Assembly (NCBI GenBank): GCA_028712445.1
Contig: JAQTPY010000001.1
Coordinates: 50,034-114,033, forward strand
DNA: 64,000 nucleotides
From: Minisyncoccota bacterium
Lineage (GTDB): Bacteria > Patescibacteriota > Minisyncoccia > Minisyncoccales > RBG-13-42-11
Direction of reading: 5' to 3'
Position 1 is the first letter of the stretch; every line of letters begins with the position of its first letter. The position numbers and the translations under genes are program-made. A model generated the notes under the pieces. It did no database searches, had not been told where the DNA came from, and saw only the letters and a program-made list of their open reading frames with translations. Shown piece by piece: positions 37,588-60,181 of the stretch.

Positions 37588-37725
37588 ATGTCTATTACTT
37601 ACCACGGAAAAAGAAAAAAAAGAAGTAGGACGCATGGCTTCATGAAAAGAATGGAAACAAAGTTCGGAAAGAGGGTTCTCTCTAAACGAAGAGCTAAGGG
37701 AAGAAAGAAATTAGTAACCGTTTAA
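37588..37725 (+). CDS. rpmH: 50S ribosomal protein L34 (not in the ORF track because it is under 60 aa).
   Basis: Translates to MSITYHGKRKKRSRTHGFMKRMETKFGKRVLSKRRAKGRKKLVTV with a TAA stop. Confidence 0.85.
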   Translation: MSITYHGKRKKRSRTHGFMKRMETKFGKRVLSKRRAKGRKKLVTV

Positions 37726-38289: not shown

Positions 38290-39023
38290 TGGAATTTTTT
38301 AAAGAAATTTTTATTACAGTTTTGTACCAGCCATTGTTTAACGCTCTGGTTTTTCTTTATCAGTATTTGCCTGGGAAAGACTTTGGAGTGGCCATTATTG
38401 TTTTGACGCTTTTAATAAGGATTTTAGTTTATCCTTTAATGGTAAAATCCTTGAAGTCCCAAAAGCAGGGAATGGAGCTTCAGCCAAAAATAAAAGAGAT
38501 TCAGAATAAATATAAGGACGATAAGGAAAAACAGACCAAAGCATTAATGGAGCTTTATCAGAAAGAAAAGATCAATCCTTTCGGCGGATGTCTGCCCCTT
38601 TTGGTCCAGCTCCCCATTCTTATTGCCCTTTATCGGGTTTTTTGGAGAGGACTAGATCCGGGTACTCTTAATTATCTTTACAGTTTTGTTCCTAATCCGG
38701 GAGTAATCGACCCTAATTTTATTGGATTAATAAATCTGTCTCAGCCCAACATGGTCATTACCGTGATTGCCGGGTTTCTTCAGTTTCTCCAGGGAAAAAT
38801 GTTTGCCCCTAAAATGGGAGGATCTTCCGGAGACGGGAAGAAAGACCTTATGTCAGACATAATGAAAAAGCAAACAATCTATTTTTTTCCTTTAATTACA
38901 GTTGTGTTTCTATTTAGACTCCCCTCGGCAATTGGTATTTACTGGATAGTGACAACCCTGTTTTCTATTGGACAACAATATTTCATTTTTAAGCAGAAAA
39001 AAAATGAGCCAGAAAAATCTTAA
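38289..39023 (+). CDS. yidC: Membrane protein insertase YidC (short form).
   Basis: Conserved YidC/Oxa1 core (CLPLLVQLPILIALY), 244 aa. Confidence 0.8.
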   Translation: MEFFKEIFITVLYQPLFNALVFLYQYLPGKDFGVAIIVLTLLIRILVYPLMVKSLKSQKQGMELQPKIKEIQNKYKDDKEKQTKALMELYQKEKINPFGGCLPLLVQLPILIALYRVFWRGLDPGTLNYLYSFVPNPGVIDPNFIGLINLSQPNMVITVIAGFLQFLQGKMFAPKMGGSSGDGKKDLMSDIMKKQTIYFFPLITVVFLFRLPSAIGIYWIVTTLFSIGQQYFIFKQKKNEPEKS

Positions 39024-39462
39024 TGTAATAAAAAAAGCAATTCAAGAATTTTTTGAAAAAGCTAATTTTGAGGTGGACATAGAAAGCGTGAAAGAAAGTG
39101 AAGATACTGTTTTTGTGAGTTTAAAAATGGAAGAACCCCAGGTTTTAATCGGGGAAGGAGGGCAAACCCTAAACGAACTTCAGCATCTTTTAAAGCTCAT
39201 AATAAAAAGAAAAGCGGAAAGCTTGTTCTATTTAGATTTGGATATCAATAACTACAAGAAAAAAAAGATAGAATATCTCAAGGAATTGGCCGTATCTACG
39301 GCAAATGAAGTTTCTTTAATGAGAAAAGAAAAAGAACTTCCTCCAATGACGGCTTATGAGAGAAGGGTCGTTCATATGGAATTGGCTAGCAGAGAAGATG
39401 TGATGACGGAAAGTATTGGAGAGGAACCGGAAAGAAGATTGATAATTAAACCTCGTCCTTAG
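39004..39462 (+). CDS. jag: Jag/KhpB-like RNA-binding protein (KH plus R3H). Start set at the internal ATG at 39004; the track ORF begins at 38968.
   Basis: C-terminal R3H-like motif (YERRVVHMELA) and the conserved position after yidC. Confidence 0.65.
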   Translation: MSQKNLNVIKKAIQEFFEKANFEVDIESVKESEDTVFVSLKMEEPQVLIGEGGQTLNELQHLLKLIIKRKAESLFYLDLDINNYKKKKIEYLKELAVSTANEVSLMRKEKELPPMTAYERRVVHMELASREDVMTESIGEEPERRLIIKPRP

Positions 39463-39464
39463 TA

Positions 39465-39857
39465 TTAAAAATTTAAATTGGGTGAGTCCAACATCAAAAC
39501 GTCGGGATTGACGATACGAAGCAAAATTACAGATCCCAACAAAAGAAGAATTCCGATCAAAGCAGATTTGATTATATCGGTGGCATCTTTTTGAGTAGTT
39601 GGGTTGCCGGAAGAAGACATGTATTTGATTCCGCCATAGACTATCATTGTAAAAGCCAAAAGACCTGAGATGGCAACGGCAAAATTAAAAATATATTGTA
39701 TCAATTGGGGAAGGGTGGCTACAAGATTCCCGTTCTCAGAAATTTTCACGCCTCCTGGCAGTTCTGGCCAATCGATTTCCGCCCTTAGGGCGAGAAGAGC
39801 AAAAAGCTCTTTTTTTGTTTTCAGAAACTTCATCATGATCTTTAGACAATATAACAT
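39465..39857 (-). CDS. VirB2/TrbC-like T4SS pilin candidate (signal peptide plus a two-TM hairpin).
   Basis: Signal-like N-terminus (KFLKTKKELFALLALRA), then FNFAVAISGLLAFTMIVYGGIKYMSSSGNP...IIKSALIGILLLLGSVILL. The topology is typical of Gram-positive/CPR T4SS pilins. Last gene of the T4SS-like block. Confidence 0.5.
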   Translation of the reverse strand: MLYCLKIMMKFLKTKKELFALLALRAEIDWPELPGGVKISENGNLVATLPQLIQYIFNFAVAISGLLAFTMIVYGGIKYMSSSGNPTTQKDATDIIKSALIGILLLLGSVILLRIVNPDVLMLDSPNLNF

Positions 39858-39885
39858 TTTTTCTTTTACATTAAAAATCTCAATT

Positions 39886-40263
39886 TCACATTAATAATCT
39901 TATAAGCCACGTGGGCAGAATGTCGCTGACTCCGGGGATTCTTTCTATAATGAAAGGCATAATCATCCCCTGGAAAGGTATTTTTGCTATTAAAGCCAGT
40001 AGAACTATAAAAATCACTTCCAGGAGCAGCTCCCAGGTCAAGGTATCTATGCCCAACCCCGGAATTAAATCTATTAACTCCATTATGCCAGCAAAAAAGA
40101 GCAAGATTATTCCTCCGGGCGAAAAAAGAACGTCTTGAGGGATTTTTTTAAACCATTTGCCGCGGGACCCTGTTTTTCTTCCCGGAGTATTTGTGTTTTG
40201 GACGTCGGCCTCAGGTTGGACAGGATTTTGAACAGGAGTCAGGTTGTCGTTTTTTTCTGCCAT
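39886..40263 (-). CDS. Small membrane protein of the T4SS-like cluster.
   Basis: 125 aa with a low-complexity N-terminus and 2-3 hydrophobic helices. Sits between virB4 and the pilin gene. Confidence 0.4.
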   Translation of the reverse strand: MAEKNDNLTPVQNPVQPEADVQNTNTPGRKTGSRGKWFKKIPQDVLFSPGGIILLFFAGIMELIDLIPGLGIDTLTWELLLEVIFIVLLALIAKIPFQGMIMPFIIERIPGVSDILPTWLIRLLM

Positions 40264-40266
40264 GAA

Positions 40267-42048
40267 TTATTGCGAACCTTTGGCTCTTTTGATTTTTATT
40301 AATTCTTCAGGGGAAGTAGTGATAAACTGATCTTCGACATAGGAAGCGACAACTTTAATTGCCACATGTTTCTGGCCTGCAAAAAATATTCCTTCTCCCA
40401 CTTCTGCTTCCAATAGGGTGTTTTTTTCTTCTTGGGTTAAATTGAAAGTTTCCTGGAGAATATCTATTGTCGCCGGGCTTTGTTTCATTAAAATTTGCAT
40501 AGAAGAGTTGGTGATTATGGGTTTTCCATAATCAGATTTCATAAAATCTCCCACATCCTGGGTAATAGTCGTCACTCCAAGCCAATATTTTCTTGCCCTT
40601 TTGCAAATGCCATAAAGGAAAGAAGCTCCGTCATCAGATTGAACCATCCACCATGCTTCATCGACAACCAATATCCTCTTTTTTAATTCTGATCTGACTT
40701 TATTCCAGATATATCTCATAATAATGAACATTGCCATCGGGCGCAGCTCATCTTCCATGTCTCTTATTCCGAAAACAACGAAAGGAACGTCTGTGGAAAT
40801 ATTGGTGGGCTGGTTAAAGAAGCTGGCGAAACTGCCTTCGGTGAATTTTTTAACTCTTCGGACCAGAGACTCAGACCCCTCCATTCCGTTTAAAACTTCC
40901 TCAAGGTCAGACATTAAAGGGATTTTTTCTTTCCAAGTTAAAGGATCGCTTTCGGGAGTAATGTCTTTTAAGGCATAGGTTTGACTCAAGGCCTGGTCAA
41001 TAATGGCATCTTCTTCCGGGGTTAATCCCCCAAGCATTATTCTTAATAACCCTACCAAGTTGATAATATTTGAACGCAAAACTTCTTCGGGCCTCTCGTC
41101 TTCTCTTGGAGCGGGCAAGTCAAAAGGATTAATGTGGTTGGGAGAAGAGAGAGACATATTAAAGAAGGAACCGCCAACTCCTTCAGCCAGATGCTTGTAT
41201 TCATTTTCCGGATCAAGAACAATTACGTCTGACCCCATCATTAAAGAGCGGAGGATTTCCAGTTTTATCGCGTAGGATTTTCCGGAACCTGATTTTGCAA
41301 AAACAATGGAGTTTGCGTTTTCCAGACTGAAACGGTCAAACAATATTAAAGAATTATTGTGCAGATTTATTCCGTACAATATTCCGTCATTTGAGCTCAG
41401 GTCAAAGGAAACAAAAGGAAAAGAGCTCGAAAGAGAACCTGTGTCCATGGTGGTGTGAACGTTAACCTGGTCTAGTCCGTAAGGGGCGGTGGAATTAAAC
41501 CCTTCTTCCTGCTGGTAGAGAGCAGGCTTTATATATATTAATCTTGATTCCAATATTGACCTTAAGGTGGTTTCAACGTTCTTTATTTCCTCTAAGGTTT
41601 TTCCGTAAACCGTAAGATAGAGCCCGAATTCAAACATTCTTTCCTGGGCAGTCATTAATTTATCTCTCAACATCTCAAGGTCTTGGTAGGCCACCTCTAG
41701 GGCAGGATCCCTCACCTCCCCTTTTTCTTGTTTATCTATAAGCTCGGCTTCAACTTCAGTCACTCTTTTTCTTAATTTTTTCAATACTGTTCCTGTGTCA
41801 ATCGGGGTGATATGCAAGCTGATATCCATAGGAGTGTCGAGGTTGATTACCGGGGCAAACCAGGCGGTATTAAGATATCTGGGGTATGAAAAAATAAAGA
41901 AAGATTTTGCGAATCTTTTGCCAAACTCCAAATGATCGGGTTTTACAACAATAGAAGACGGGGCAATAATGTCTTTGGAATCAAGGGCATTTGCCTCAAA
42001 TAGTTTTTCAGGCTCAACGCTCTTCTTTTTAAAAAATGGAAAAGGCAT
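40267..42048 (-). CDS. virB4: VirB4/TraC/PrgJ-family T4SS ATPase, C-terminal 593-aa portion (central and ATPase domains).
   Basis: FIFSYPRYLNTAWFAPV segment, Walker A VFAKSGSGKSY, Walker B ILVVDEAWWM, and C-terminal motifs. Confidence 0.8.
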   Translation of the reverse strand: MPFPFFKKKSVEPEKLFEANALDSKDIIAPSSIVVKPDHLEFGKRFAKSFFIFSYPRYLNTAWFAPVINLDTPMDISLHITPIDTGTVLKKLRKRVTEVEAELIDKQEKGEVRDPALEVAYQDLEMLRDKLMTAQERMFEFGLYLTVYGKTLEEIKNVETTLRSILESRLIYIKPALYQQEEGFNSTAPYGLDQVNVHTTMDTGSLSSSFPFVSFDLSSNDGILYGINLHNNSLILFDRFSLENANSIVFAKSGSGKSYAIKLEILRSLMMGSDVIVLDPENEYKHLAEGVGGSFFNMSLSSPNHINPFDLPAPREDERPEEVLRSNIINLVGLLRIMLGGLTPEEDAIIDQALSQTYALKDITPESDPLTWKEKIPLMSDLEEVLNGMEGSESLVRRVKKFTEGSFASFFNQPTNISTDVPFVVFGIRDMEDELRPMAMFIIMRYIWNKVRSELKKRILVVDEAWWMVQSDDGASFLYGICKRARKYWLGVTTITQDVGDFMKSDYGKPIITNSSMQILMKQSPATIDILQETFNLTQEEKNTLLEAEVGEGIFFAGQKHVAIKVVASYVEDQFITTSPEELIKIKRAKGSQ

Positions 42049-42060
42049 AAATTCTTTAAT

Positions 42061-42678
42061 CTATTTTGTTATTTCCGGTGGAATTTCAGGATAATATCCC
42101 ACTTCTGATTCTTCGGGATGAAAAAGACTCCAAAACAACTCAATTAATTCAGGAGTGTTTAGGTGGCTGCACTGCAGGCCGCATCTTCTTAATCCTAAAG
42201 CGACAAATTCCATTCTCTGCCAAAGCTGGGATTTAGCTCTTTGAAAGTCGTCTTCCGTGGGCGTTGCAGTATTTGATTTTGTTCCAGGAATATTAAGAAC
42301 GTAAAATGGAACCAAAACATAGAAGGTTTTAGATAAAATCTGGCCTCCGGCAATAAGTTCTTTGATGAATTTCTGATATTCTTCAGTTTGTATTTTTAAG
42401 AGTTCGTTTTGCTGTTTTTGGGCCAAATCGCCAACTTTGTCTATGTATCCTGTAATGTTTAAAATTCTGGACTGGATAACGATTTCCAAGGGGAAATCCA
42501 GGGAATTTAAAAAGTTCTGGAATTGGAAAATGGTGGCTTCCTGTTCTTCAGCTGATTTTAAAGCAAAGTTTTGCGAGGACACGTTTAAAACTCCACGTAA
42601 AGATTTGTTCTTTAAATAGACAACCCCTTCTCTTATTTGTTCTATTTGTAAAAATTGTTGAGTGGATGATGAGGGCAT
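42061..42678 (-). CDS. virB4: VirB4/PrgJ N-terminal domain as a separate 205-aa ORF. It is in frame with 40267..42048 and separated from it only by a TAG plus 4 codons.
   Basis: GVVYLKNKSLRGVLNVSSQNFALKSAEEQEATIFQFQNFLNSLDFPLEIVIQSR matches the N-terminus of Gram-positive VirB4 proteins. Confidence 0.6.
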   Translation of the reverse strand: MPSSSTQQFLQIEQIREGVVYLKNKSLRGVLNVSSQNFALKSAEEQEATIFQFQNFLNSLDFPLEIVIQSRILNITGYIDKVGDLAQKQQNELLKIQTEEYQKFIKELIAGGQILSKTFYVLVPFYVLNIPGTKSNTATPTEDDFQRAKSQLWQRMEFVALGLRRCGLQCSHLNTPELIELFWSLFHPEESEVGYYPEIPPEITK

Positions 42679-42680
42679 GG

Positions 42681-42998
42681 TCAGGTTTTGGTTTTTAATT
42701 CGTATCTTTTATCTTGCTGTTTTTTCTTTTTCCAGATGTACATTTTAGGAGCGATAAAAAATTTTAAGACACTGCCAAGGGCCACTATAAAAGGACGGCC
42801 GTTGACTTTTATAAAAGACATGGCCAACGCTCCGCCGATAACAAAAACAGCAGCAATATAAAAGACAGGTCTGGGCAAAATGAAGTAAAGCAAAAAACAA
42901 ATTCCTCCTGCTCCGGCAATAAAAAGAAATTGGTTGAAGGTAAAAGGCCCAAATATTTTAGACTCGTATTCAATAAATTGTGGGACTGTAAAGCGCAT
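42681..42998 (-). CDS. PrgI-family (VirB3-like) small membrane protein.
   Basis: RFTVPQFIEYESKIFGPFTFNQFLFIAGAG plus two TM helices. Immediately upstream of virB4, as in Gram-positive T4SS loci. Confidence 0.55.
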   Translation of the reverse strand: MRFTVPQFIEYESKIFGPFTFNQFLFIAGAGGICFLLYFILPRPVFYIAAVFVIGGALAMSFIKVNGRPFIVALGSVLKFFIAPKMYIWKKKKQQDKRYELKTKT

Positions 42999-43015
42999 AA
43001 ATTAGTTTTTATTTT

Positions 43016-43522
43016 TTAGTCAATTTGTTCTCTATAACTATCGCTGGACGCAGATCTCTCTTTGACTATTGGGTTGGCTGTTTTCATCTGCAAACCGATT
43101 TCTTTCGGAACAAAAACTTTCTTTTTAGGAAGATTTTTTTCCTCAGAAACTTCGGGTTTGATTTCTTCTATGATCTTCTCTTCCGCCTTTTTATTTTTTT
43201 GAGAATAAAGAATTTCCAAAGATGCTTTTACCGGGAAGAATACATATCTGTTTATTTCTTCGGCAATTTGTTTTGCCTTTTCTTTTTCAACGTCCAGTTC
43301 TTTTTCAATCCTTTCTTGGAAGTTTTCCGGCGGCAAAATACCCAACAAAACCTCTCCAACCAACAGGGAGATGTCTGAAGGAAGATCAACCTCGTTCTTT
43401 TCGCAGACATTCCCAATGCTTTCAGCGGTGGAAGGCGAAAGCAAAGCTTCTTTGAGCTCTTGGGGGAGTTTTTCGTACAACTCCCAGTTTTTTTTAATAT
43501 TTTCTTGAGATAAGGTTGTCAT
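43016..43522 (-). CDS. Hypothetical cytoplasmic protein of the T4SS-like cluster.
   Basis: 168-aa acidic ORF between the virB6-like and prgI-like genes. Confidence 0.4.
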   Translation of the reverse strand: MTTLSQENIKKNWELYEKLPQELKEALLSPSTAESIGNVCEKNEVDLPSDISLLVGEVLLGILPPENFQERIEKELDVEKEKAKQIAEEINRYVFFPVKASLEILYSQKNKKAEEKIIEEIKPEVSEEKNLPKKKVFVPKEIGLQMKTANPIVKERSASSDSYREQID

Positions 43523-43589
43523 ATTGACATTTTTTAATAAATATGTTAATATTAGAACCAGAAAAATTTAATAAAGGAGGACTAATATC

Positions 43590-43976
43590 GTGGAATGGTG
43601 GGTATGGCTAATAATCGCAGGAGCTCTCGTTCTGGTAATCCTGGCTTTCTCCGGCAACACAACGGTTAAAAAGGTGATCAGGGCCAAGAAGGAGACACCT
43701 CCCCCGGCTCCGGAAGACCCTACGGAGGAAGAAAGAATCAGGTCCCGTATCCGGGAAGAACAAAGGATAGCGGCTTACTATCAGGGGCTTCTTTCTCCCG
43801 AACCGACAGACGTAAAGGGATTGGGGGAAAGGTTAAGGACTCTTCGTCTTCAGGGGAAACTTCTTTCTCAGCAGTATGAAAACAAAGAGCTTGAGAAGAA
43901 GATCCTGGCTGCCACTGAAGCCGCGGAAAAAAGCAATGAGGGATGGGAGCAAAAAATCAACGAGGGGAAACCATAG
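43590..43976 (+). CDS. Single-pass membrane-anchored Pro-rich protein (GTG start).
   Basis: A strong AAAGGAGG SD sits 9 nt before GTG. N-terminal TM WWVWLIIAGALVLVILAF. Convergent with the virB6-like gene. Confidence 0.45.
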   Translation: MEWWVWLIIAGALVLVILAFSGNTTVKKVIRAKKETPPPAPEDPTEEERIRSRIREEQRIAAYYQGLLSPEPTDVKGLGERLRTLRLQGKLLSQQYENKELEKKILAATEAAEKSNEGWEQKINEGKP

Positions 43977-43994
43977 CTAGCACTTTGCTATCTA

Positions 43995-44027
43995 GGGGTA
44001 GAAGGAAACTTCTACCCCCTATTTTTT
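43995..44027. terminator. Bidirectional terminator between the two convergent genes.
   Basis: ggggtagaag-gaaa-cttctacccc followed by ctatttttt. Confidence 0.65.
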
Positions 44028-44052
44028 ATAAGAACAAACCTTATTTTCTTTT

Positions 44053-46743
44053 TTATATTAATTTTTTATATTTTGCCAATTCTGCTTTTAGTTTTGCGTC
44101 TCCGTCGATTGTTTTTATCAGTTGAGTTAATTCGCCAGCTCTTTTTATTTGATTATTTGAGATTTCCGCAGGTATTGCCTGGCCCTTGTCTCGCATGGCC
44201 ACAATCACTTTTCCTAATTTTTTTGCTATTTCAGAACCTTCTACAAATTTTTTGATCTGTGGATTGTCTTCAAGTATTTTGTGAGCGTCAAGCTCTCGTT
44301 TCACGTCGCCCTTCCCTTTTTGCTTGCTCAATGTTTCTTTATATCGCTGCAACTGCCCTCTTGACAAAGGATCACTGTCGATAAAATCTCTGGCTTTAAA
44401 TATTTCTTCGTTTCTTTCTATTATCTGTTTTTGGATATCTTCTTTGGCAGGAACCTGTCCGTCAGCTATCGCTTTAAGTATGGAATTTTCATCACTGTCA
44501 ACGCTTTTTTGGTTTTCGATATATTCATTTAGCGGAGAATTGCTTTCCAAGATCTGTTTGGCGGCGACATTTCTTCCGAAATCTTTTTCATCGACGCCGG
44601 CAATTCCTACTCCAAGAGTTAAAGCAGGAGTGTCTATCAAGAACTTTGCTGCTTTGGCATTTCTCATTTTGTGGATTGTTTTTGTTTCAGGAAGTTTTGT
44701 GTTTGGGTTAATTTCAGTCCAAGATGTTTCTTCTATTTCCGTGAACCAATCAAGACCTTTTTTCTTAGCTTCGTTTATATAATCATCAGCGAATGGGGAA
44801 CCGAATTCTTCAACCATTTTACTGATCTTTTTGCCATCATAATTCTTGAGTATAGATTCTCTTATCGTCATTTCTTCTTTCCCAGTATCAGGATTAGTTG
44901 TTTTTGTTAACCAAGATCCGTCTTTAAAATCTTTAACCTCATCTCCACTTGTCTCAGCCCATATTTTATCAGTAAGCGTTCCGTATTTTGCCTGTTCTTC
45001 GGCGCTTAGTTCAAATCCCATCTTAGCCAAGTCATCATTGTTGAGGGTGTGCATAAAGCCCCTGGCCATCCTTTCGGCATCATCTTTTTTGCCAAGCCTG
45101 TTTGATGAAGCGGCTGAGGAGATGATTTCTTCTTTGCTTAATCTGCCCCTCTCAAACATATCCCAGACTCGTTTTTTGCTTTCTTTTCCTGCTTCAATTC
45201 CGCCGGCAATCAGACCGGTTAATTTTTCTTTATTGCCCAATCTTTTGGCCGCCATGATTTTTCTTTCCAGATTTTCAGGATCCTTAACGTCTTTTGCGTC
45301 TTTTTTGCCCACCTCAACCCCTGCCATGGTTTTTTCGCCAACGGTTGTGCCAGCCACCCTGTAACCAAAGTCAATCATGTTTCCTGCTCCTAGCCGCATT
45401 TTGTTTAACAAACCTACTTTTTGACCGCTGGCCACTTTCGCCCTTAAATCTTCTCTGGTATTTTGAGTGAATTCTCTCAAACCCCTGTCAGTTCTGCTCC
45501 TTAGCGCGCTCAAGCCCTTCTTTTTGGCCCAATTAAGCCCTTTATTTCCCCACTGGAGAACCGCTTCTGTTCCCCCGCCAGAGAATTTCAAAGTCACGAC
45601 GAAGCCGATTATCATAAAAGCAATAAAGGCGATCAAGACAAACGCGCCATTCATTATATAAGTAACGGGAGATATTATGATTTGCATAATTCCTTCTGCC
45701 CCTGTTTCGGTTATTTTAGGATAAGGTATGTCGGCCTTGGTTAAACGTCCCGCCAAGTAAAGGAAGAATCCTCCTATTGCTCCGATAAAAGACCATTGGA
45801 TGAAATAATTCAACCACATTTTGAAGACTTTTTGGGTGGTGGGTAGAATTTGGCAAAACCAGGCGATAGGGGCCAAGATGACCAAAATCCACAAAGCAAC
45901 TATTCTTATTGCAAAAATGGCAACATAAAGCAAAATAACGATTCCAGCCATAATCCCGAAAAGACTCATCATTACGGTGTCTATTATAAGAGTTATTATT
46001 TGTTGGGGATTTAGATATTTAACAAAAATATCCAAAATACTCGTCCATGTCTTAGTCGGTTCTATTTGAGTAATTTCCTCTCCATCTATGATAATGGTCG
46101 ATGTTTCGGGTTGCATTTGGTCAGCTAGGCCAGTAAAGACTGAAACAAAATCACCCAAAGGAGTTTTATTAAAGAACGTCATAAAATTATCTCCCAAATT
46201 TCCGATTAAAAAGTGTCGGGTTACTATATTGGCAATATCAATCACTATCCCGCAGAATACGGGAACAAAGTTTATTAAAAGAATAACGATGAGAAATTTG
46301 GGTAGAAGTTTTTTTAATCCATAGTTTTCTCTTCTTAAAATAGTGGCTATGGCAATTACAACCAAAACCAAAATAAAAATTAAATTTGCCAGCCCTGTAG
46401 TAACTCTTAGTCCTTCATCAACAATACCGCCACGGGTTGCGGAAAGAGAAACGAACGCCTCGCTGGTGACAAAGGTCAAAAGAGAAGTGCAAAGGGAGTA
46501 GAACGCAAATGACGATAAAGTTATAATTGTCGTTCCGACGATGATGATGGTTATCGGCATACCAAAAAACATCAAAAGAGGCAAATATTTTATATAGTCG
46601 CCAACGTCCATAATCCCTTTCCAGATATCGCTAAGACCGGCAGCGTTGGCAAAGTTAATTGTTGCAAAACTAAACAACAAAATTAACCCGAAACAAGAAA
46701 CTAAGGTTTTTTTGTTTGCTGAAAGTTTTTTGATCAGATCCAT
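44053..46743 (-). CDS. VirB6/TrbL-like polytopic membrane protein with a ~500-aa hydrophilic C-terminal extension.
   Basis: Signal peptide, then about 9 TM helices over ~400 aa, then a long Lys/Glu-rich soluble tail. First gene of the block. Confidence 0.55.
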   Translation of the reverse strand: MDLIKKLSANKKTLVSCFGLILLFSFATINFANAAGLSDIWKGIMDVGDYIKYLPLLMFFGMPITIIIVGTTIITLSSFAFYSLCTSLLTFVTSEAFVSLSATRGGIVDEGLRVTTGLANLIFILVLVVIAIATILRRENYGLKKLLPKFLIVILLINFVPVFCGIVIDIANIVTRHFLIGNLGDNFMTFFNKTPLGDFVSVFTGLADQMQPETSTIIIDGEEITQIEPTKTWTSILDIFVKYLNPQQIITLIIDTVMMSLFGIMAGIVILLYVAIFAIRIVALWILVILAPIAWFCQILPTTQKVFKMWLNYFIQWSFIGAIGGFFLYLAGRLTKADIPYPKITETGAEGIMQIIISPVTYIMNGAFVLIAFIAFMIIGFVVTLKFSGGGTEAVLQWGNKGLNWAKKKGLSALRSRTDRGLREFTQNTREDLRAKVASGQKVGLLNKMRLGAGNMIDFGYRVAGTTVGEKTMAGVEVGKKDAKDVKDPENLERKIMAAKRLGNKEKLTGLIAGGIEAGKESKKRVWDMFERGRLSKEEIISSAASSNRLGKKDDAERMARGFMHTLNNDDLAKMGFELSAEEQAKYGTLTDKIWAETSGDEVKDFKDGSWLTKTTNPDTGKEEMTIRESILKNYDGKKISKMVEEFGSPFADDYINEAKKKGLDWFTEIEETSWTEINPNTKLPETKTIHKMRNAKAAKFLIDTPALTLGVGIAGVDEKDFGRNVAAKQILESNSPLNEYIENQKSVDSDENSILKAIADGQVPAKEDIQKQIIERNEEIFKARDFIDSDPLSRGQLQRYKETLSKQKGKGDVKRELDAHKILEDNPQIKKFVEGSEIAKKLGKVIVAMRDKGQAIPAEISNNQIKRAGELTQLIKTIDGDAKLKAELAKYKKLI

Positions 46744-46762
46744 GCAAATAAAATATTAATCC

Positions 46763-46771
46763 ATTATACCA
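46763..46771 (-). promoter_or_regulatory. Extended -10 element (TGgTATAAT) upstream of the virB6-like gene.
   Basis: Reverse complement of attatacca, ~20 nt upstream of the ATG. Confidence 0.35.
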
Positions 46772-46791
46772 AAGCTGTTTCATCGCGCAAC

Positions 46792-46823
46792 AAAAAAAGG
46801 GCTAACAAGATTCTTGTTAGCCC
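46792..46823 (-). terminator. Rho-independent terminator after the 180-aa OB-fold gene.
   Basis: gggctaacaag-att-cttgttagccc with a T-run on the minus strand. Confidence 0.55.
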
Positions 46824-46846
46824 CAAGCCAACTAATGGTGCCGAAG

Positions 46847-47389
46847 TTAGTTGACTATTTTGCATTCGGCAAGCTCCACCCATGTGTCGGAGCTGCCCTT
46901 AAACACTCCCTGCACTATTACTGTGTCTCCCACCTTTACGCCGGTCGGGATAGTATTGAAGACGCATTGTACTTTGCTGAAAGATCCTGCCCAAAGCCAG
47001 ACTACCACGCTGTCTGAAAGCGTGTGGATTTCCTTGACAGTGCCCTTCACTAGCAACTCCTTATCTTTATATGCCGATGGATTGTTGTGACCTTCTTTGA
47101 AAATCTGATCAGCATACATTAGAGGGGGAGCAGAAGAAGGAGATGAAGGAGTGTCAGTAATTGTGGGTTTAGACAAAGTTGGTGGGCTGGTCGGCGGAGC
47201 TTTCGGAGTTGCTATGGGCGTGTTTGTTGAGGTTATAGCAACCGTAGGCGCAGAAGCACTAGCTTCGGGATTCATTGCGATTGCTTCTGACGTTGGCGTT
47301 GTCGCTGCGGTGTTGAAGGCAAAGAAGCCCCCAGCTGCAGCCAATAATATTGCGGAGAAGATTATTATAAAAACAAATCTTTTTTTCAC
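46847..47389 (-). CDS. Secreted or anchored protein: signal/TM, a Pro/Thr/Ser-rich linker, and a C-terminal OB-fold-like domain.
   Basis: N-terminal hydrophobic helix, ~70 aa of PTS-rich low complexity, then KELLVKGTVKEI...VVVWLW...VKVGDTVIVQGVF. Confidence 0.45.
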   Translation of the reverse strand: MKKRFVFIIIFSAILLAAAGGFFAFNTAATTPTSEAIAMNPEASASAPTVAITSTNTPIATPKAPPTSPPTLSKPTITDTPSSPSSAPPLMYADQIFKEGHNNPSAYKDKELLVKGTVKEIHTLSDSVVVWLWAGSFSKVQCVFNTIPTGVKVGDTVIVQGVFKGSSDTWVELAECKIVN

Positions 47390-47541
47390 TGGACACCTCC
47401 TTTTTCAGATGAAATTCGATGCTGTTTATACCCTACCAGAAATTTTGCGTTTTGTCAATAGTCAATAAGGATGTTCAGTTTTTAAACCAAATTTAACTTT
47501 CTACTTTGATTATTGCACAGTTTTCCTTCCTTTGGCAAAAA

Positions 47542-49746
47542 TTAAATAGGAAACTGCCACCATTTGCCAAAGATCTCAATTTGGAATCCCAGTAATGACA
47601 AGAGGAAAGTGACAATAAACCAGGCAGAAAAGACGATCAAAAATCCTTTGCCAAATGATTTCCAAATAGATTTGATTTTGCTCAAGGTGCCAGAATCCCC
47701 CATGGCAGTGTAATAAATTATGCCAGAGCCAGTCACCAGGAAAATCAATAAAATAGGAATCAGGGTCCAGAGGACAAAATCAAGAATGTTTCTGAAAATG
47801 TAGAAAATATCTTTAAATTCGCAAGGCCTGTGATCGTCATAAGGGGTGTCTGGGGAGTCGCAGTTCCTTCCGCAAGGAACCAGCCCTTTTTTGCATTCTT
47901 TATCTCCAGGAACCAAATTGAAAGAGAAATTGGCCCATTCTCCGGCGTCTTGGCAGTCTTTATCCAAGCAGGCCTTGACAGACCAGGAGTAGTTTTGAAA
48001 ATTTAAGTTCCCGGTTTCAAGAAAAGTTGAGTTCGTCCCAACAATGCCTTCGGGGCCTCCCGAAATCTTGTATTGATAATAGTTGGCTCCTTCCACAGGA
48101 TTCCAGGAAAGGTTTTTTTGATAAGAAATTAATTCTCCGCCGTTTGAGGGTTCAGGATTTGCCACTTGGGGAAGAGTGAAAGTAGTGAAATTTTTTACAG
48201 AGGAATTTCCGCAGATTTTAGCTTCCCTGTCAGCACAGGTTTTAAGAGCTAACCAATAGTTCGTTTTCGTTTTAAGGAGAGGATAATCGGCCAAAGGATT
48301 GGCTCCCGCGAAAGGAAGGAGGCCTGAAGACAAAATTTGAGAAAAGCTTCCATTAGATGAAAGCTCATAATAATAAGAGGCGGCTGCCGGCATTTGGTCA
48401 AAAGTCAAAGAAACGGGAATTAAGGGGAGCCCCTGGTTTCCGAAAGGGCTGATTTTAATGTTTGTTGGAGGAGCCCCTGTGGTTTTGAAAGTCAAGTTAT
48501 TAAAAATTTGTTCGCAATTGTTCCCTTTTTCGTCCCAACAAGAACTTAACTTCAAGGTGTAGCCTTGATTAAGTTCAAGTTTGTTCCAGATATCGCTGAA
48601 AGGAACGGAAGTGATTTCTCCCGAAGTGGTGGCGCTTATTATCGTCAGGCCGTTTTTTAAAATTTCATATCTGTAGGAGAGCACCCCTTTCAGCCCCATT
48701 GATTCCCAGGAGATGGAGTTTGAAAGATTGACCGTGTCTGAGTCTTTGGGGAAATTGATCACGGGAGCAAGAAGGTTCAGAGTGCCTGTGTTTATTTTCC
48801 AATATTGACTGAAATCTCCGCACTCTGAACCTTCTTGATTTTCCTTGCATTTTTCTCCGCAATCAGTGCCGTCCGCATTCAAACAGGCGGCGATTTCCCA
48901 AGAATAATCACTAAGCTTGGTAAAAATATCTGTCCCATATTCTATTTCCGAACTTTCAATGTTTTCTTTTTCATCGATGGGAACGGGAAAAAATATCTTT
49001 CCGTCTTTGTACAGCTTAAGAAAATATGATTCAGCGTCATTTACTGAGCACCAGTCAAGTTTCACTGGCACGGAAGTGTTTTGGGCGCTCTCTTCCCCTT
49101 GCCAGTCGGGGTCTTTCGGCGAAACTAGTTCTGGCGCCAGAGAGGTTTTTAAATTCCAGTTGCTGGAATTTCCACAGTTGGTTCCGTTGGCGTTGCAGCA
49201 AGCAGAGACATCCCAGTTATAAGAAGAATTGGAGTCAAGAAGACAAGAACCATTGTCTTCTTGGACATCATATTCAGATTTATTAATTATTTTTGAGACT
49301 ATCTTGTTGTAAATATTAATTACGTAAGATTTAGGTCCGGTAGACTCTCCCCAGCCTGCCACGTCGTTCCAATCCAGTTTTACGGGCAGCTTAATATTAT
49401 TTTTATCTACGCTTTTTGAAGACTGGTCTGAATAATAGGGATTATCGTAATACCTGTCGCCAGAAGGGGTTTCCAAGCATTCTCCCTGACAGGAACAGGA
49501 AGGCGGAGAGGCGCTGCATCTTTCCCAGGATTGGCATTCCTGGACTAATATGTCTTCGCATTCGCTTCCTCCACAGCAGGGCTCCCCGGGAGTCACGTAG
49601 CGGAGCTCTCCTTCGCAGCCTCCGGCGCAGTAATAATATCCTCCGCAGGGGCAAGGGATGCATTTTTCCCCCTCAGCTTTTGCTTGCTGAAAAAATAAAA
49701 AAATAAAAAACAGTAAAATAAAAAATATGAAAAACTTTTTCATCAT
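47542..49746 (-). CDS. Large Cys-rich surface protein: signal peptide, a CxC-rich module, about 5 tandem beta-sandwich-like repeats each closed by a Cys pair, and a C-terminal pilin-like 2-TM hairpin.
   Basis: Repeats end in ..SACCNANGTNCG.., ..AACLNADGTDCG.., ..SSCWDEKGNNCE.., ..KTCADREAKICG.., ..KACLDKDCQDAG... The C-terminus reads LLIFLVTGSGIIYYTAMGDSGTLSKIKSIWKSFGKGFLIVFSAWFIVTFLL. The start overlaps the ksgA stop (TAATG). Confidence 0.55.
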   Translation of the reverse strand: MMKKFFIFFILLFFIFLFFQQAKAEGEKCIPCPCGGYYYCAGGCEGELRYVTPGEPCCGGSECEDILVQECQSWERCSASPPSCSCQGECLETPSGDRYYDNPYYSDQSSKSVDKNNIKLPVKLDWNDVAGWGESTGPKSYVINIYNKIVSKIINKSEYDVQEDNGSCLLDSNSSYNWDVSACCNANGTNCGNSSNWNLKTSLAPELVSPKDPDWQGEESAQNTSVPVKLDWCSVNDAESYFLKLYKDGKIFFPVPIDEKENIESSEIEYGTDIFTKLSDYSWEIAACLNADGTDCGEKCKENQEGSECGDFSQYWKINTGTLNLLAPVINFPKDSDTVNLSNSISWESMGLKGVLSYRYEILKNGLTIISATTSGEITSVPFSDIWNKLELNQGYTLKLSSCWDEKGNNCEQIFNNLTFKTTGAPPTNIKISPFGNQGLPLIPVSLTFDQMPAAASYYYELSSNGSFSQILSSGLLPFAGANPLADYPLLKTKTNYWLALKTCADREAKICGNSSVKNFTTFTLPQVANPEPSNGGELISYQKNLSWNPVEGANYYQYKISGGPEGIVGTNSTFLETGNLNFQNYSWSVKACLDKDCQDAGEWANFSFNLVPGDKECKKGLVPCGRNCDSPDTPYDDHRPCEFKDIFYIFRNILDFVLWTLIPILLIFLVTGSGIIYYTAMGDSGTLSKIKSIWKSFGKGFLIVFSAWFIVTFLLSLLGFQIEIFGKWWQFPI

Positions 49747-50585
49747 TAATCTATTCTATATGTTTTTAATAAATTCAGCCAATCTTCCAGCTCTAATGTT
49801 TCGGCCCTTCTTTTAGGTTCAATCTTATTTTCAATCAGCCAGGTCCCGACTTTCTCTTTACTCAGATTAAGTTTGTTTGAGAGGTTGTTTATCAATTGTT
49901 TTCTCGGTTGGGAAAATCCAGCTTTTACGATTTTAAAAAATGAATCCCTGTTTTTTTCCTTTAATAATGGCTCTCTAAAAGGAAGAATCTTTATCACTGC
50001 AGCGTCAACGTTGGGTTCCGGCCAAAAGAATTTTCCAGGGACGTAAGAAATGATTTTAGGATTTGCGTAAATCTGGACAGAAACCGCTAAAATATTCATT
50101 CCAGGCGGTTTAGAGCATATTTTTTTTCCAACTTCCTTCTGAATTGTAAAAACCATGCTTTCAGGAGGGTTTTCAGATTCCAGAAATCTTCTGATTAGGG
50201 GAGAAGTTAAATAAAAAGGCAGATTGCCGGCTACTTTGTATTTTTCATTTTGGACACCGAGACTTCCCAGATCCACTCTTAAAGCATCTCCCTCTATTAC
50301 CTCTACATTATTAAGCCCTGCCAGAGTTTCTTTCAAAATTTCTATCATTGTCCGGTCTTTTTCTATGGCTACTACCTTTTTAGCTTTTCTTGCCAGTTCT
50401 TGGGTTAAGACTCCCAGCCCGGGTCCGATTTCTAATACCAATTCATCAGATTGGAGATCTAAAGCTTCGGTAAGTTTTTCTATAGTCGATCTATTCAATA
50501 AAAAATTCTGCCCCAATCCTTTAGAGGGGCGAGCCAGATGGTTTTTCAGGATGTTTTTAATGTCAGATTTGGAAAAAAGATCCAT
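49746..50585 (-). CDS. rsmA: 16S rRNA (adenine1518/1519-N6)-dimethyltransferase.
   Basis: GQNFL, LEIGPGLG and the NLPY motif context. Confidence 0.85.
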   Translation of the reverse strand: MDLFSKSDIKNILKNHLARPSKGLGQNFLLNRSTIEKLTEALDLQSDELVLEIGPGLGVLTQELARKAKKVVAIEKDRTMIEILKETLAGLNNVEVIEGDALRVDLGSLGVQNEKYKVAGNLPFYLTSPLIRRFLESENPPESMVFTIQKEVGKKICSKPPGMNILAVSVQIYANPKIISYVPGKFFWPEPNVDAAVIKILPFREPLLKEKNRDSFFKIVKAGFSQPRKQLINNLSNKLNLSKEKVGTWLIENKIEPKRRAETLELEDWLNLLKTYRID

Positions 50586-50593
50586 ATTTAAAG

Positions 50594-51790
50594 GTGTACA
50601 AATTGTGGATAAAAAGCTTGACTGAGGAGCCTATTTTTATTATACTATTACAAGTCAATATGAAACGCAAAAGCAAGGGGCTCTTGAGGTGGAGAAAGAG
50701 TCTCAAAAAGCTAAAAAAGTATTTTGAAGGGTCTCTAGAAGATCCTTTCTTCTGTTTTGGAGCAGCCGCTTTATTTTTATTCATTATTGTCTGCTTGAAT
50801 CCGGGAAATATTTCCGGATCCTCAGAAAGCAGAGAGAATCTTTCTTTAGCAGCCCTTTCCCAGGTTTTAATAGATGAATCTGGCGATAAAAACCAGTTTG
50901 CCGGCTTGTCTGCCAAGAAAACTTTAATTGAATCTCCGGGTTTTCTTTTGGTCGGAAATTCCAGCTTAAAGGCAGTCACTTCACCTAGCGCTCTTTCCCC
51001 TCAGATTTTAGGAGCTTTAGTTGGCGATGTTGAATCTTATGACAATGAAAAGAGTGTTCGTGAATACGCCGTTGAGTCGGGAGACACCCTTTGGTCTATT
51101 GCCGACAGATTCGGCATATCAATAGATACCATTCTTTGGGCGAATGATCTAAATAAGAACACTTTGCTTAAAGAAGGGCAACGATTGATAATTCTTCCTG
51201 TTTCAGGCGTCATTCACCATGTTAAGTCCGGAGACACCATATCCGTTGTCGCTCAAAAGTATAAAGGAAAGACAGAAGATGTTATAGCGTACAATAATCT
51301 TTCTAACGAAGGAGATATTTACGTCGGAGACATATTGGTTATTCCTGGCGGGAAAATGCCAAAAGTAACCTATCCCAGTTCACCCAATGTTCCTTTGGCT
51401 GACAGCTACTTTATTTGTCCAATCGGTTCTCCTTGCCGCATTACGCAAGGTCTCCATTTCTATAACGCTGTTGATTTCAGCCATGGAAAATGCGGCGAAG
51501 TGATTTATGCTGCAGCTGCCGGGACCGTCCAGAGGGTTAACATGACAAATTCCACTTACAGGCTGGCAAATAACGGGTATGGAAGCCACATGACCATATT
51601 GCATCCCAATGGAGCAGTCACTTATTACGGGCACATTGCCGCTATTCTGGTAAATACGGGAGACAAAGTTTCCCAGGGCCAGCCTATAGCTTTGATGGGA
51701 GGAAAACCTGGCACTGCTGGAGCAGGGAAATCAACAGGTTGTCATCTTCATTTCGGAGTTTCAGGAGCTAGAAATCCTTTTGCGAGATAG
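50594..51790 (+). CDS. LysM-domain M23 family peptidase. The start may be the internal Met at 50657.
   Basis: Two LysM repeats (GDTLWSIADRFGI, GDTISVVAQKYKG) and an M23 HxxxD...HLH core (HMTILHPNG...CHLHF). Confidence 0.8.
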   Translation: MYKLWIKSLTEEPIFIILLQVNMKRKSKGLLRWRKSLKKLKKYFEGSLEDPFFCFGAAALFLFIIVCLNPGNISGSSESRENLSLAALSQVLIDESGDKNQFAGLSAKKTLIESPGFLLVGNSSLKAVTSPSALSPQILGALVGDVESYDNEKSVREYAVESGDTLWSIADRFGISIDTILWANDLNKNTLLKEGQRLIILPVSGVIHHVKSGDTISVVAQKYKGKTEDVIAYNNLSNEGDIYVGDILVIPGGKMPKVTYPSSPNVPLADSYFICPIGSPCRITQGLHFYNAVDFSHGKCGEVIYAAAAGTVQRVNMTNSTYRLANNGYGSHMTILHPNGAVTYYGHIAAILVNTGDKVSQGQPIALMGGKPGTAGAGKSTGCHLHFGVSGARNPFAR

Positions 51791-52302: not shown

Positions 52303-53322
52303 TCATTCTATTAGGGAATCAAAATATTCCCAGTCAAAATTCCAAGGATCTGTTTTGGTGCTAGAAATGTTTTCATGTCCAAGAATATTGTTTGAGACGA
52401 GAGGATGGTTACTTTTTAAATATCGCGTGAGCTCAGCTAGAGCTTCGTACTGAGCGGGGCTGGGGGAGTCGGTATTTTTATAAATCAATTCAATGCCGAT
52501 CGAAAAGTTGTTGATGACATTTTTTCTGGCGCCATCGGGCATTACGCCGGTGCCTGCATGATAAGCCACATCTTTCTCGGGAGCCAGACTGTAGATTATT
52601 CCGTTTCTGTCTATTAAATAATGAGAGGCGACTTTGTATATTCTGAATTCTTCAATTACCTTATCTACGCTGTAAACATCCCCTCCCAAAGCGTTGTAGG
52701 CAGAGTGGATTATTAAAGTGTCTATGGTTCTGGGAGTTTTAGGAGTGTAATGTCCCCAGCTTAGGATTCTGTTTATGGTTGAGGGACCAGTTTCCTTTTC
52801 GGGTTCAGAATCCTGAGGTTCTTCTTCGGCTGGCGGATTTTCCTCTTCAGGTTCGCTGCTTGTTGCTTCGCCGCCGGCAGGGATAACTGTTTCAGGAGGA
52901 TTTTCATTCAAGGGTTCATTGTTTGCTGGCTCATTTTTCTGAGGAGACTCTTTTGCAGAGTTGTTTGCAAACAAAAACCAGTAGATTGAAAGTCCAATCA
53001 AAAAAATAAAGATAATTATGCCTGCCCGGATAATGATTTTCAGAAAAGCTGTATTTTTTCCTGCTGATTTGGGAATCAGCAATCCCGGCTCTTCGGGTTT
53101 TTTTTCTTGAGGCCCGAGAGAGGGTGAGAGAGTGACCGGTTTTCCTTCCGTATTTAACGAAGCGATTCTTTCTTTTTCTTTCTGAGCTTCATTTTCTCTC
53201 AGTCCGGCCACTTCTTTTTCCATAGTGCTTATCTCCTCTCTTTTCAAGAATTCTTTTTTCTCTCCCTCAGTCGGCTGATTTTCCTGAGGCAAGTCAGGTT
53301 TTTTAATGTCAGAAAAATTCAC
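52303..53322 (-). CDS. N-acetylmuramoyl-L-alanine amidase (Amidase_2/PGRP type) with an N-terminal TM and a Pro/Glu-rich linker.
   Basis: LIIHSA...VASHYLIDRNG...AYHAG core. Confidence 0.65.
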   Translation of the reverse strand: MNFSDIKKPDLPQENQPTEGEKKEFLKREEISTMEKEVAGLRENEAQKEKERIASLNTEGKPVTLSPSLGPQEKKPEEPGLLIPKSAGKNTAFLKIIIRAGIIIFIFLIGLSIYWFLFANNSAKESPQKNEPANNEPLNENPPETVIPAGGEATSSEPEEENPPAEEEPQDSEPEKETGPSTINRILSWGHYTPKTPRTIDTLIIHSAYNALGGDVYSVDKVIEEFRIYKVASHYLIDRNGIIYSLAPEKDVAYHAGTGVMPDGARKNVINNFSIGIELIYKNTDSPSPAQYEALAELTRYLKSNHPLVSNNILGHENISSTKTDPWNFDWEYFDSLIE

Positions 53323-58086: not shown

Positions 58087-58157
58087 CGGGGTATAGTGTA
58101 ATAGCAGCACGAGTCCTTCGGGAGGATTTAGCTCCAGTGCAAATCTGGATACCCCGA
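58087..58157 (+). other. tRNA-like hairpin: an 8-bp closing stem cggggtat/ataccccg, an internal cUUCGg tetraloop, and a T-arm-like CCAG-TGCAAAT-CTGG. Not a canonical tRNA.
   Basis: Seen directly in the sequence. Its 3' end contains the 10-nt motif gataccccga that recurs at 59163. Confidence 0.35.
58148..58157 (+). repeat. Direct repeat copy 1 (gataccccga).
   Basis: Identical 10-mer (plus Ya) found again at 59163..59172, flanking the nuclease gene. Confidence 0.55.
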
Positions 58158-58159
58158 CA

Positions 58160-60105: not shown

Positions 60106-60176
60106 GGGGATATAGTAAAACGGCATTACGCAGCATTCGCATTGCTGAGGTCCGGGTTCAATTCCCGGTATCTCCA
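60106..60176 (+). tRNA. tRNA-Ala (anticodon CGC) with a G3:U70 pair.
   Basis: GGGGATA acceptor pairing with TATCTCC (G3-U70), anticodon loop TTCGCAT, T-arm CCGGG-TTCAATT-CCCGG. Confidence 0.75.
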
Positions 60177-60181
60177 CATTT

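Follow-up and report, generated by a model that had tools for sequence, protein, structure and literature searches.

The stretch of DNA analysed here, 64,000 nucleotides of a Minisyncoccota bacterium (contig JAQTPY010000001.1, positions 50,034 to 114,033; the window), carries a block of genes between jag and ksgA (39465-49746) that encodes a type IV secretion system (T4SS) or pilus. With a confidence of roughly 80%, we read it as a chromosomal, origin-proximal Patescibacteria-type T4SS of Paceibacteria (Parcubacteria), derived from the mating-pair formation class MPF-FATA and repurposed. Its cytoplasmic-membrane module combines a VirB4 ATPase with PrgI/VirB3, an extended VirB6 and a TrsD-like N-domain that has its own gene, and is accompanied by two proteins with a VirB2-like pilin domain, one short and one with a stalk of fibronectin type III (FN3) domains. 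The identities of these components, their conserved synteny and the housekeeping genes that flank them together support the assignment. Loci of this kind, including the position near dnaA and ksgA and the lack of conjugation genes, are already described in papers from 2023 to 2025.

Composition of the locus

The block contains nine open reading frames (ORFs) on the minus strand and one on the plus strand, at a GC content of 0.39-0.42 that is similar in the flanks. Families were assigned by hidden Markov model (HMM) scans against Pfam and NCBIfam, judged against the profile cut-offs, and the family screen of the window covered 50 larger ORFs across the 64 kb. The flanks and the remainder of the window hold housekeeping genes, T4SS parts and proteins without a family match. 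The features of the block and its two boundary genes are as follows.

38968-39462, plus strand: jag
39465-39857, minus strand: short VirB2-like pilin, 130 aa (PF18895; hydrophobic helices 55-73 and 95-113)
39886-40263, minus strand: small membrane protein, 125 aa (hydrophilic N-terminus, 2-3 transmembrane helices)
40267-42048, minus strand: VirB4 ATPase body, 593 aa (NF045971 and other VirB4 profiles)
42061-42678, minus strand: TrsD-like protein, a separately encoded VirB4 N-terminal domain, 205 aa (N-terminal VirB4 profile matches)
42681-42998, minus strand: PrgI/VirB3-like membrane protein, 105 aa (PF12666)
43016-43522, minus strand: p168, soluble accessory protein, 168 aa (alignment A3, profile)
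43590-43976, plus strand: small gene, 128 aa, N-terminal transmembrane helix and charged coiled region (promoter, Shine-Dalgarno site, terminator)
43995-44018, plus strand: terminator of the 128-aa gene
44053-46743, minus strand: extended VirB6-like polytopic protein, 896 aa (fold and transitive homology)
46771-46763, minus strand: promoter with an extended -10 (TGgTATAAT), placed 19 nt upstream of the ATG of the virB6-like gene
46824-46798, minus strand: intrinsic terminator downstream of the OB-fold gene (stem of 12 bp including 6 GC pairs, followed by a T-run)
46847-47389, minus strand: secreted or anchored OB-fold protein with a Pro/Thr/Ser linker, 180 aa (PF12869)
47542-49746, minus strand: FN3-stalked pilin, 734 aa, 32 Cys (AlphaFold2 model, Foldseek, T4SS_pilin)
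49746-50585, minus strand: ksgA, 16S rRNA dimethyladenosine transferase (PF00398, E 5.5e-55)

A previous interpretation made from the letters alone (the sequence-only reading) had proposed a stripped-down, non-conjugative T4SS or pilus locus of Gram-positive type, adjacent to the origin of a bacterium from the candidate phyla radiation (CPR), and the HMM matches and the VirB6 fold support it. Its ORF coordinates were confirmed on the sequence; its ten co-oriented minus-strand genes are nine, with 43590-43976 on the plus strand, and the surface proteins that it called giant are not so, measuring 734 and 896 aa. Among the families that it had named by eye, VirB4, PrgI and the pilin score above cut-off, and VirB6 is recovered only through homologues and fold. 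Neither of the two outcomes that it had set against itself, a failure of the HMM assignments or a conventional integrative and conjugative element (ICE), was found. Its remark that the composition is not a textbook T4SS is outdated, as the same composition and neighbourhood are published in PMC12102498 and reviewed in PMC12857230.

The VirB4 ATPase and its separately encoded N-terminal domain

The VirB4 body matches NF045971, the CD1110 family, at E 9e-114 (381 bits, cut-off 325) over profile positions 180-734 of 752, and PF19044 at E 6e-27. The translation shows an intact Walker A motif (AKSGSGKS) and an intact Walker B motif (ILVVDEAWW), and the nearest solved structure is the C-domain of Thermoanaerobacter VirB4 (PDB 4ag5, E 4e-46). 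The protein aligns with residues 220-772 of pCF10 PrgJ (25% identity, E 3e-42); since the alignment begins only at PrgJ residue 220, the ATPase body is without a PrgJ-type N-terminus. These N-terminal ~220 residues are supplied by the 205-aa TrsD-like protein, which matches only the N-terminal parts of VirB4 profiles (NF045971 positions 2-171, E 3.6e-7; NF045975 positions 103-280, E 1.6e-10) and reaches TrsD itself (NF041427) at E 0.01.

VirB4 relatives were collected at one genome per species (530 found), and all synteny counts refer to the best 80 of these, with 58-81% identity. A stop codon separates trsD from virB4 in 78 of 78 related loci, and a frameshift or pseudogene was therefore rejected as the origin of the split. 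The two-piece VirB4 of the sequence-only reading does consist of two genes, and this is the normal TrsD+VirB4 arrangement of the family rather than a peculiarity of this locus; PMC12102498 likewise reports trsD adjoining virB4 in Patescibacteria. The PrgI-like protein passes the PF12666 cut-off (E 1e-8, 36 bits, cut-off 27), and its gene lies directly upstream of trsD in 75 of the 80 loci. At the other end of virB4, the 125-aa membrane protein has no match to a Pfam or NCBIfam family; an iterated profile finds it in 18 of the 80 loci, in 17 of which it abuts or overlaps the 3' end of virB4, and from sequence it would be an accessory component.

The extended VirB6-like protein

The 896-aa protein owes its VirB6-like assignment to fold and transitive homology; by HMM it is not a direct member of the family. 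It begins with a cleavable-looking signal peptide, followed by ~7 membrane helices up to ~residue 390 and a Lys/Arg-rich segment after the last of them. Beyond the membrane helices extends a C-terminal helical domain of ~500 aa, which is probably cytoplasmic. This architecture fits the 'extended VirB6' type described in PMC12857230. Scans of Pfam and NCBIfam with the whole protein and with residues 1-430 gave no match even at E<=10, and the protein itself does not reach the gathering score of PF04610 (TrbL/VirB6). Among its 161 homologues, four of those tested pass that score, and residues 32-440 of the window protein align to the homologue P0054 over the TrbL match of the latter (3e-34). A VirB6 fold match was obtained for the 896-aa protein. 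Against PDB sequences, the family profile reached TrwI at no better than E 0.43, and an hhalign comparison of the VirB6 family with pCF10 PrgH was weak (E 0.0058, probability 6%).

The gene is preceded by the extended -10 element that the sequence-only reading had pointed out and that is present in the sequence as TGgTATAAT. Its -35 element is weak (TTGCGC, 16-nt spacer), hence the promoter is not listed by the consensus scan.

Short and stalked pilins

The 130-aa protein is a VirB2-like pilin, above cut-off for PF18895 T4SS_pilin (E 1e-10, 41.9 bits, cut-off 26.6) and matching the Mbov_0395 pilin-like family NF045849 at E 2e-7. The second pilin is of a different build. Its AlphaFold2 model (mean predicted local distance difference test score 85) predicts a signal peptide, a Cys-rich knob (37-100), five beta-sandwich domains (115-612), a Cys-containing linker and a VirB2-like helical hairpin (645-718), in this order, and Foldseek matches the model to tandem FN3 arrays at E 1e-15. 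Residues 650-715 score 22.4 bits against T4SS_pilin, just under the cut-off of 26.6, which is passed at the C-termini of the family members P0138, P0141 and P0143. An HMM built from the C-terminus of the 734-aa family also matches the 130-aa pilin (E 2.9e-4), and these two proteins are its only matches in the window. The modelled hairpin and the family-level matches agree with the Cys-rich protein with a pilin-like C-terminus that had been read from the sequence, as does the NCBI annotation of the protein as 'pilin'.

Homologues of the 734-aa protein, 700-950 aa long, occupy the same place after ksgA in ~10 near relatives. In the 80 related loci, on both sides of virB4, an iterated pilin-domain profile marks ORFs of which ~75 of 89 exceed 200 aa, the longest at ~1,400 aa; these counts are approximate, as the profile may have drifted on hydrophobic helices. 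From these sequences, large domains fused to a VirB2-like hairpin seem to be the rule in this clade. A knob and five FN3 domains fused to a VirB2 hairpin would make a host-recognition adhesin incorporated into the pilus, a kind of fusion not known from classical T4SSs. If true, the fusion of pilin and adhesin would explain why no separate adhesin was found.

p168, a candidate adaptor

A further conserved protein of the locus is p168. Alignment A3 shows a helical N-domain of ~105 aa, a disordered Pro/Lys/Glu-rich linker and a C-terminal DxYRE(P)I(E) tail. The protein has no Pfam, NCBIfam or PDB match; pCF10 PrgF and PrgE and the PDB sequences were tried as relatives, and no relationship emerged. 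The family is widespread, with 7,111 cluster representatives at E<=1e-3, and a profile finds p168 in 66 of the 80 loci. In 31 loci the tail motif occurs once per locus, always directly upstream of prgI, and within the 64-kb window, as within each related locus, a single protein carries it. The p168 of the window has DSYREQID as its C-terminal peptide. The tail is thus far a candidate docking peptide or adaptor of the T4SS, judged by sequence: it would dock on the cytoplasmic face of VirB4, TrsD or VirB6, with p168 acting as an adaptor in place of a coupling protein.

The p168 family with its conserved tail and the FN3-stalked pilins seem to be less covered by the literature. In the available parts of PMC12102498, no adhesins are detected and neither stalked pilins nor the p168 family is mentioned; the available parts of PMC10633639 do not name them either. 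That pilins with large ectodomains serve as pilus adhesins and p168 as an adaptor, making them two functionally new conserved parts of the Paceibacteria T4SS, is a tentative proposal, conceivable but on the unlikely side.

Conserved synteny and chromosomal context

Genomic neighbourhood analysis (tblastn and iterated profiles) gives the order ksgA-stalked pilin-(pilin)-VirB6-p168-PrgI-TrsD-VirB4-(membrane protein/pilin)-jag-yidC-rnpA-dnaA-dnaN. TrsD is present in 78 of the 80 loci, PrgI in 75, the pilin domain in 67, p168 in the 66 given above and VirB6 in at least 56. The comparison of gene order across related CPR genomes that the sequence-only reading had suggested thus yields the same order and the same chromosomal place in 80 species genomes. 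Nearly all of these are Paceibacteria-type metagenome-assembled genomes (MAGs), including Wildermuth-, Nealson-, Azam-, Taga- and Nomurabacteria. Their labels are CPR/Patescibacteria or a generic 'bacterium', with no Nanoarchaeota and one that is not CPR (L015, 'Candidatus Humimicrobiaceae'). None of the 80 VirB4 relatives comes from a known conjugative element.

The nearest VirB4 relatives (L001-L007 and others) are MAGs labelled 'uncultured Candidatus Saccharibacteria' (TPA_asm binchicken assemblies). By synteny and similarity these group with Paceibacteria-labelled genomes, and the window protein itself carries the label 'Candidatus Pacebacteria'; 'Saccharibacteria' is here probably a generic or mistaken label.

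The stop codon of ksgA overlaps the start of the 734-aa pilin by 1 nt, and the adjacency of ksgA is conserved. By its sequence, ksgA is the predicted head of a transcription unit that includes the stalked pilin. Three such units are predicted in all: one from ksgA through the pilin to the OB-fold gene, one for virB6, and one running from p168 to the short pilin. The block has no flanking tRNA or repeats, the tRNAs of the window lying only at ~5 kb and at 56-60 kb. The proximity to the origin is inferred from gene content only, the dnaN-dnaA / rpmH-rnpA-yidD-yidC-jag cluster, because DnaA boxes are not enriched (14 in the whole window against 14.3 expected, with the E. coli consensus) and the cumulative GC skew stays level between 34 and 56 kb.

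Comparison with known type IV secretion systems

The closest known systems are the Patescibacteria T4SSs of PMC12102498 (Quiñonero-Coronel et al. 2025) and of Southlakia epibionticum (SEML1_0006-0019; PMC10633639, Wang et al. 2023), which share VirB4 with a separate TrsD, PrgI/VirB3, VirB6 and PF18895 pilins. PMC12102498 places the Patescibacteria VirB4 clade as sister to MPF-FATA and describes a set of TrsD, PrgI/VirB3, VirB6 and VirB2-like PF18895 pilins with almost no relaxases. According to the same paper, the T4SSs of Paceibacteria and Microgenomatia lie near dnaA, dnaN, rnpA, rpmH and ksgA, which is read there as a gene-dosage effect; the locus described here matches the Paceibacteria position and, like those systems, has no relaxase or type IV coupling protein (T4CP) nearby. 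It differs from them in the number of pilin-domain genes, only two instead of a 6-gene array, with the 734-aa FN3-stalked fusion as one of the two, and in the extra OB-fold and plus-strand 128-aa inserts. Southlakia is a member of the Saccharimonadia, and its T4SS, as described in PMC10633639, is the Saccharibacteria version; its T4SS and pilin genes were essential for epibiotic growth by transposon sequencing, and deletion of comEC was tolerated. A 2025 FEMS review (PMC12857230) describes a new T4SS type that may build a conduit pilus, and a 2026 preprint shows tubular structures, which may be T4SS pili, where parasite and host meet, and ties VirB4 to the transfer of macromolecules.

With the MPF-FATA systems (pCF10 Prg/Pcf and the Clostridioides CTn2 CD1110 type) the locus shares a PrgJ-alignable VirB4, a PrgI protein, the order VirB6-VirB3-VirB4 and a VirB6/PrgH-like polytopic protein directly upstream. 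Unlike this locus, pCF10 encodes PcfC (VirD4), the relaxase PcfG, PrgK (VirB1), PrgL (VirB8) and the adhesin PrgB; conversely, it has no VirB2 pilin, whereas the present locus has pilins and encodes the VirB4 N-domain as its own gene. This last trait is shared with the Trs systems of pGO1/pSK41, in which the N-terminal VirB4-like domain is a small separate protein beside the ATPase. Trs differs in being conjugative, with a relaxase and a T4CP, and the TrsD profile match here is the one at E 0.01 given above.

The MPF-T systems, R388 Trw and Agrobacterium VirB, have in common with the locus a VirB4 ATPase (TrwK, E 1e-7) and a two-helix pilin of the VirB2 type, and this class serves as the mechanistic template for pilin extraction and pilus assembly. 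In contrast to MPF-T, the locus has no outer-membrane core (VirB7/9/10), VirB5, VirB8 or VirB11, its envelope is monoderm, and its VirB6 carries the ~500-aa extra C-terminal domain. The crenarchaeal Ced system is similar in its minimal VirB4-like ATPase, VirB6-like protein and small VirB2-like pilins, and in having neither relaxase nor T4CP; sequence similarity to it is marginal (CedB NF041017, 55.6 bits against a cut-off of 700). Two Mycoplasma ICE families are also approached, both below the equivalog cut-off: the short pilin resembles NF045849 Mbov_0395 (30.6 against 40) and the VirB4 NF045975 Mbov_0397 (E 3.6e-83, 280 against 590). The Mycoplasma genes lie on mobile ICEs, unlike this locus.

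Proposed mechanism and alternative functions

By analogy with VirB3 and VirB6 in the R388 structure, PrgI would anchor the VirB4/TrsD ATPase to the VirB6 platform. The ATPase would then pull membrane-inserted pilin hairpins out and polymerise them, giving a thin pilus or tube across the cell wall; the FN3-stalked pilin would become part of it, either at the tip or as a decoration, and act as an adhesin that recognises the surface of the host cell. The resulting structure would serve host attachment and the exchange of macromolecules, with host material moving in or effectors moving out, rather than conjugation of a plasmid or ICE. Translational coupling to ksgA and the proximity of dnaA would lead to constitutive, high-dosage expression.

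Several points weigh against this interpretation. No VirB8-, VirB1- or VirB5-like component was identified within the block, and VirB6 is without a direct HMM match. Promoters and terminators were called by consensus match alone, and the assembly of a pilus by these genes is extrapolated from Gram-negative systems. The remainder of the 197-kb contig, or of the genome, could encode a T4CP or relaxase, and PMC12102498 reports VirD4 homologues far from virB4 in many genomes.

The best-surviving specific alternative, still an unlikely one, is a macromolecule importer like the archaeal Ced or Helicobacter ComB systems, which would draw in host DNA or RNA as a nucleotide supply without a relaxase or T4CP. 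The parallel in composition with Ced drawn above argues for it, as do weak matches to the CedB and CedD profiles (E 3.6e-15 and 6e-6). Import is the favoured hypothesis in PMC12857230 and in PMC12102498, and the 2026 preprint ties VirB4 to host RNA uptake. However, at 55.6 bits against the CedB cut-off of 700 the present VirB4 is not a Ced orthologue, the locus has no conserved nucleic-acid-binding or nuclease component, the OB-fold gene being absent from 80 of 80 relatives, and the direction of transport is not readable from sequence.

The locus could also export protein effectors into or onto the host, as do the T4CP-less systems Bordetella Ptl and Brucella VirB, which we consider improbable. 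Effector T4SSs without a T4CP do exist (PMC12857230 and PMC12102498), and Wang et al. (PMC10633639) suggest protein export as an option; the conserved tail of p168, placed after a disordered linker, could be a docking or secretion signal. Yet the locus encodes no conserved candidate effector, and a tail confined to a single protein per locus resembles a structural partner rather than a shared secretion signal.

A doubtful third possibility is an organelle for adhesion only, displaying pilin-anchored FN3 adhesins or a short pilus without the passage of any substrate. At 734 aa, one of the largest proteins of the locus is an FN3-stalked pilin, most pilin-domain ORFs in related loci have large extra domains, by approximate counts, and no substrate-recruitment component was found in the locus. 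Against it, the genome also has type IV pilus genes, the usual providers of adhesion (for example the PilB-like ATPase at 27476-28792), and a VirB4/VirB6 translocon kept only for display seems costly for a reduced genome.

A conventional conjugative element, be it an ICE or an integrated plasmid, whose relaxase, T4CP and integrase lie outside the block, is very improbable and was rejected on synteny and the lack of mobility genes: the VirB4 does fall in the CD1110 conjugative family of NCBIfam and the short pilin does match a Mycoplasma ICE pilin-like family, but the screen of 50 larger ORFs across the window brought up no relaxase, T4CP or integrase, the block lacks flanking tRNA or repeats and has the GC content of its flanks, its first gene is translationally coupled to ksgA, and its identical context in 80 species, at VirB4 identities down to 58%, rules out a recent insertion. 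The sequence-only reading had likewise seen no VirD4, relaxase or integrase and had held that the block is not a conjugative element; the screen and the shared place in 80 species genomes agree with it.

The Patescibacteria-type T4SS described here is not a new system; as a tidy and compact representative from Paceibacteria that has every conserved part, the locus refines the list of components. In this clade trsD and virB4 are split throughout, the VirB6 is in this case recognisable by fold but not by a direct HMM match, the OB-fold protein is not a core component, and the missing adaptor and adhesin functions have good candidates in the widespread p168-type protein and in stalked pilins. Patescibacteria make up a large share of bacterial diversity, and their T4SS is thought to be central to the life of these ultrasmall bacteria on other cells; it was essential in the one species tested.

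Probable lineage-specific inserts

Two genes of the block depart from the conserved order. The 180-aa protein matches PF12869 (tRNA_anti-like, an oligonucleotide/oligosaccharide-binding or OB fold) at E 1.5e-9, and its gene has an AAGGAGG Shine-Dalgarno site and a GTG start; tblastn and phmmer find it in 0 of the 80 related loci. The terminator that had been placed after this gene was found at 46824-46798. The plus-strand 128-aa gene is preceded by a promoter-like TTGACA-17-TAATAT at 43524-43552 and again has an AAGGAGG Shine-Dalgarno site and a GTG start; tblastn finds it in 0 and phmmer in 2 of the 80 loci. A gap in the NCBI locus tags, PHW72_00515 to 00525, implies that a gene was called at 43590-43976. 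The OB-fold match of the sequence-only reading is thus real, and neither of these two genes, which fall within its ten-gene block, is a conserved part of the system.

Within the block, AAGGAGG with a GTG start occurs only in these two genes, and only they are essentially missing among the relatives; the leaders of the conserved T4SS genes are A/T-rich and contain no Shine-Dalgarno site. This contrast, together with the non-conservation, suggests later insertions with a different style of translation initiation, and from their sequences both genes look like lineage-specific inserts.

Neighbouring genes

Beyond the block, the following genes of the window bear on the locus or on its position.

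27476-28792, plus strand: PilB/T2SSE-type ATPase (PF00437, E 1e-111)
28966-29763, plus strand: lamin-tail-domain protein, adjoining the PilB-type ATPase
37588-37725: rpmH, 45 aa, between dnaA and rnpA
50594-51790, plus strand: cell-wall hydrolase with LysM and peptidase M23 domains (PF01476, PF01551)
52303-53322, minus strand: Amidase_2 cell-wall hydrolase, flanking ksgA together with the LysM and M23 gene

The two hydrolases are speculative candidates for VirB1-type wall-remodelling partners of the T4SS. An M23 gene lies next to ksgA in 9 related loci, and VirB1-like M23/LysM proteins are linked to virB4 in Paceibacteria according to PMC12102498. The PilB-type ATPase, ~11 kb from the T4SS, belongs to a type IV pilus or competence system, which may cooperate with it.

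The gene for polynucleotide phosphorylase (PNPase; 53357-55492, minus strand) is 3.6 kb away from the T4SS block, and one related locus (L075) likewise has it near virB4. According to a proposal in the 2026 preprint, PNPase and VirB4 are together ancestral to RNA-based parasitism in the phylum; the proximity seen here may be coincidental. Further out, a 300-aa ORF (58160-59062, minus strand) between tRNA-Pro (58087-58158) and tRNA-Ala (60106-60177) matches the homing-endonuclease-associated HNH_repeat at E 2e-5, just below cut-off, and may be the remnant of a mobile endonuclease.

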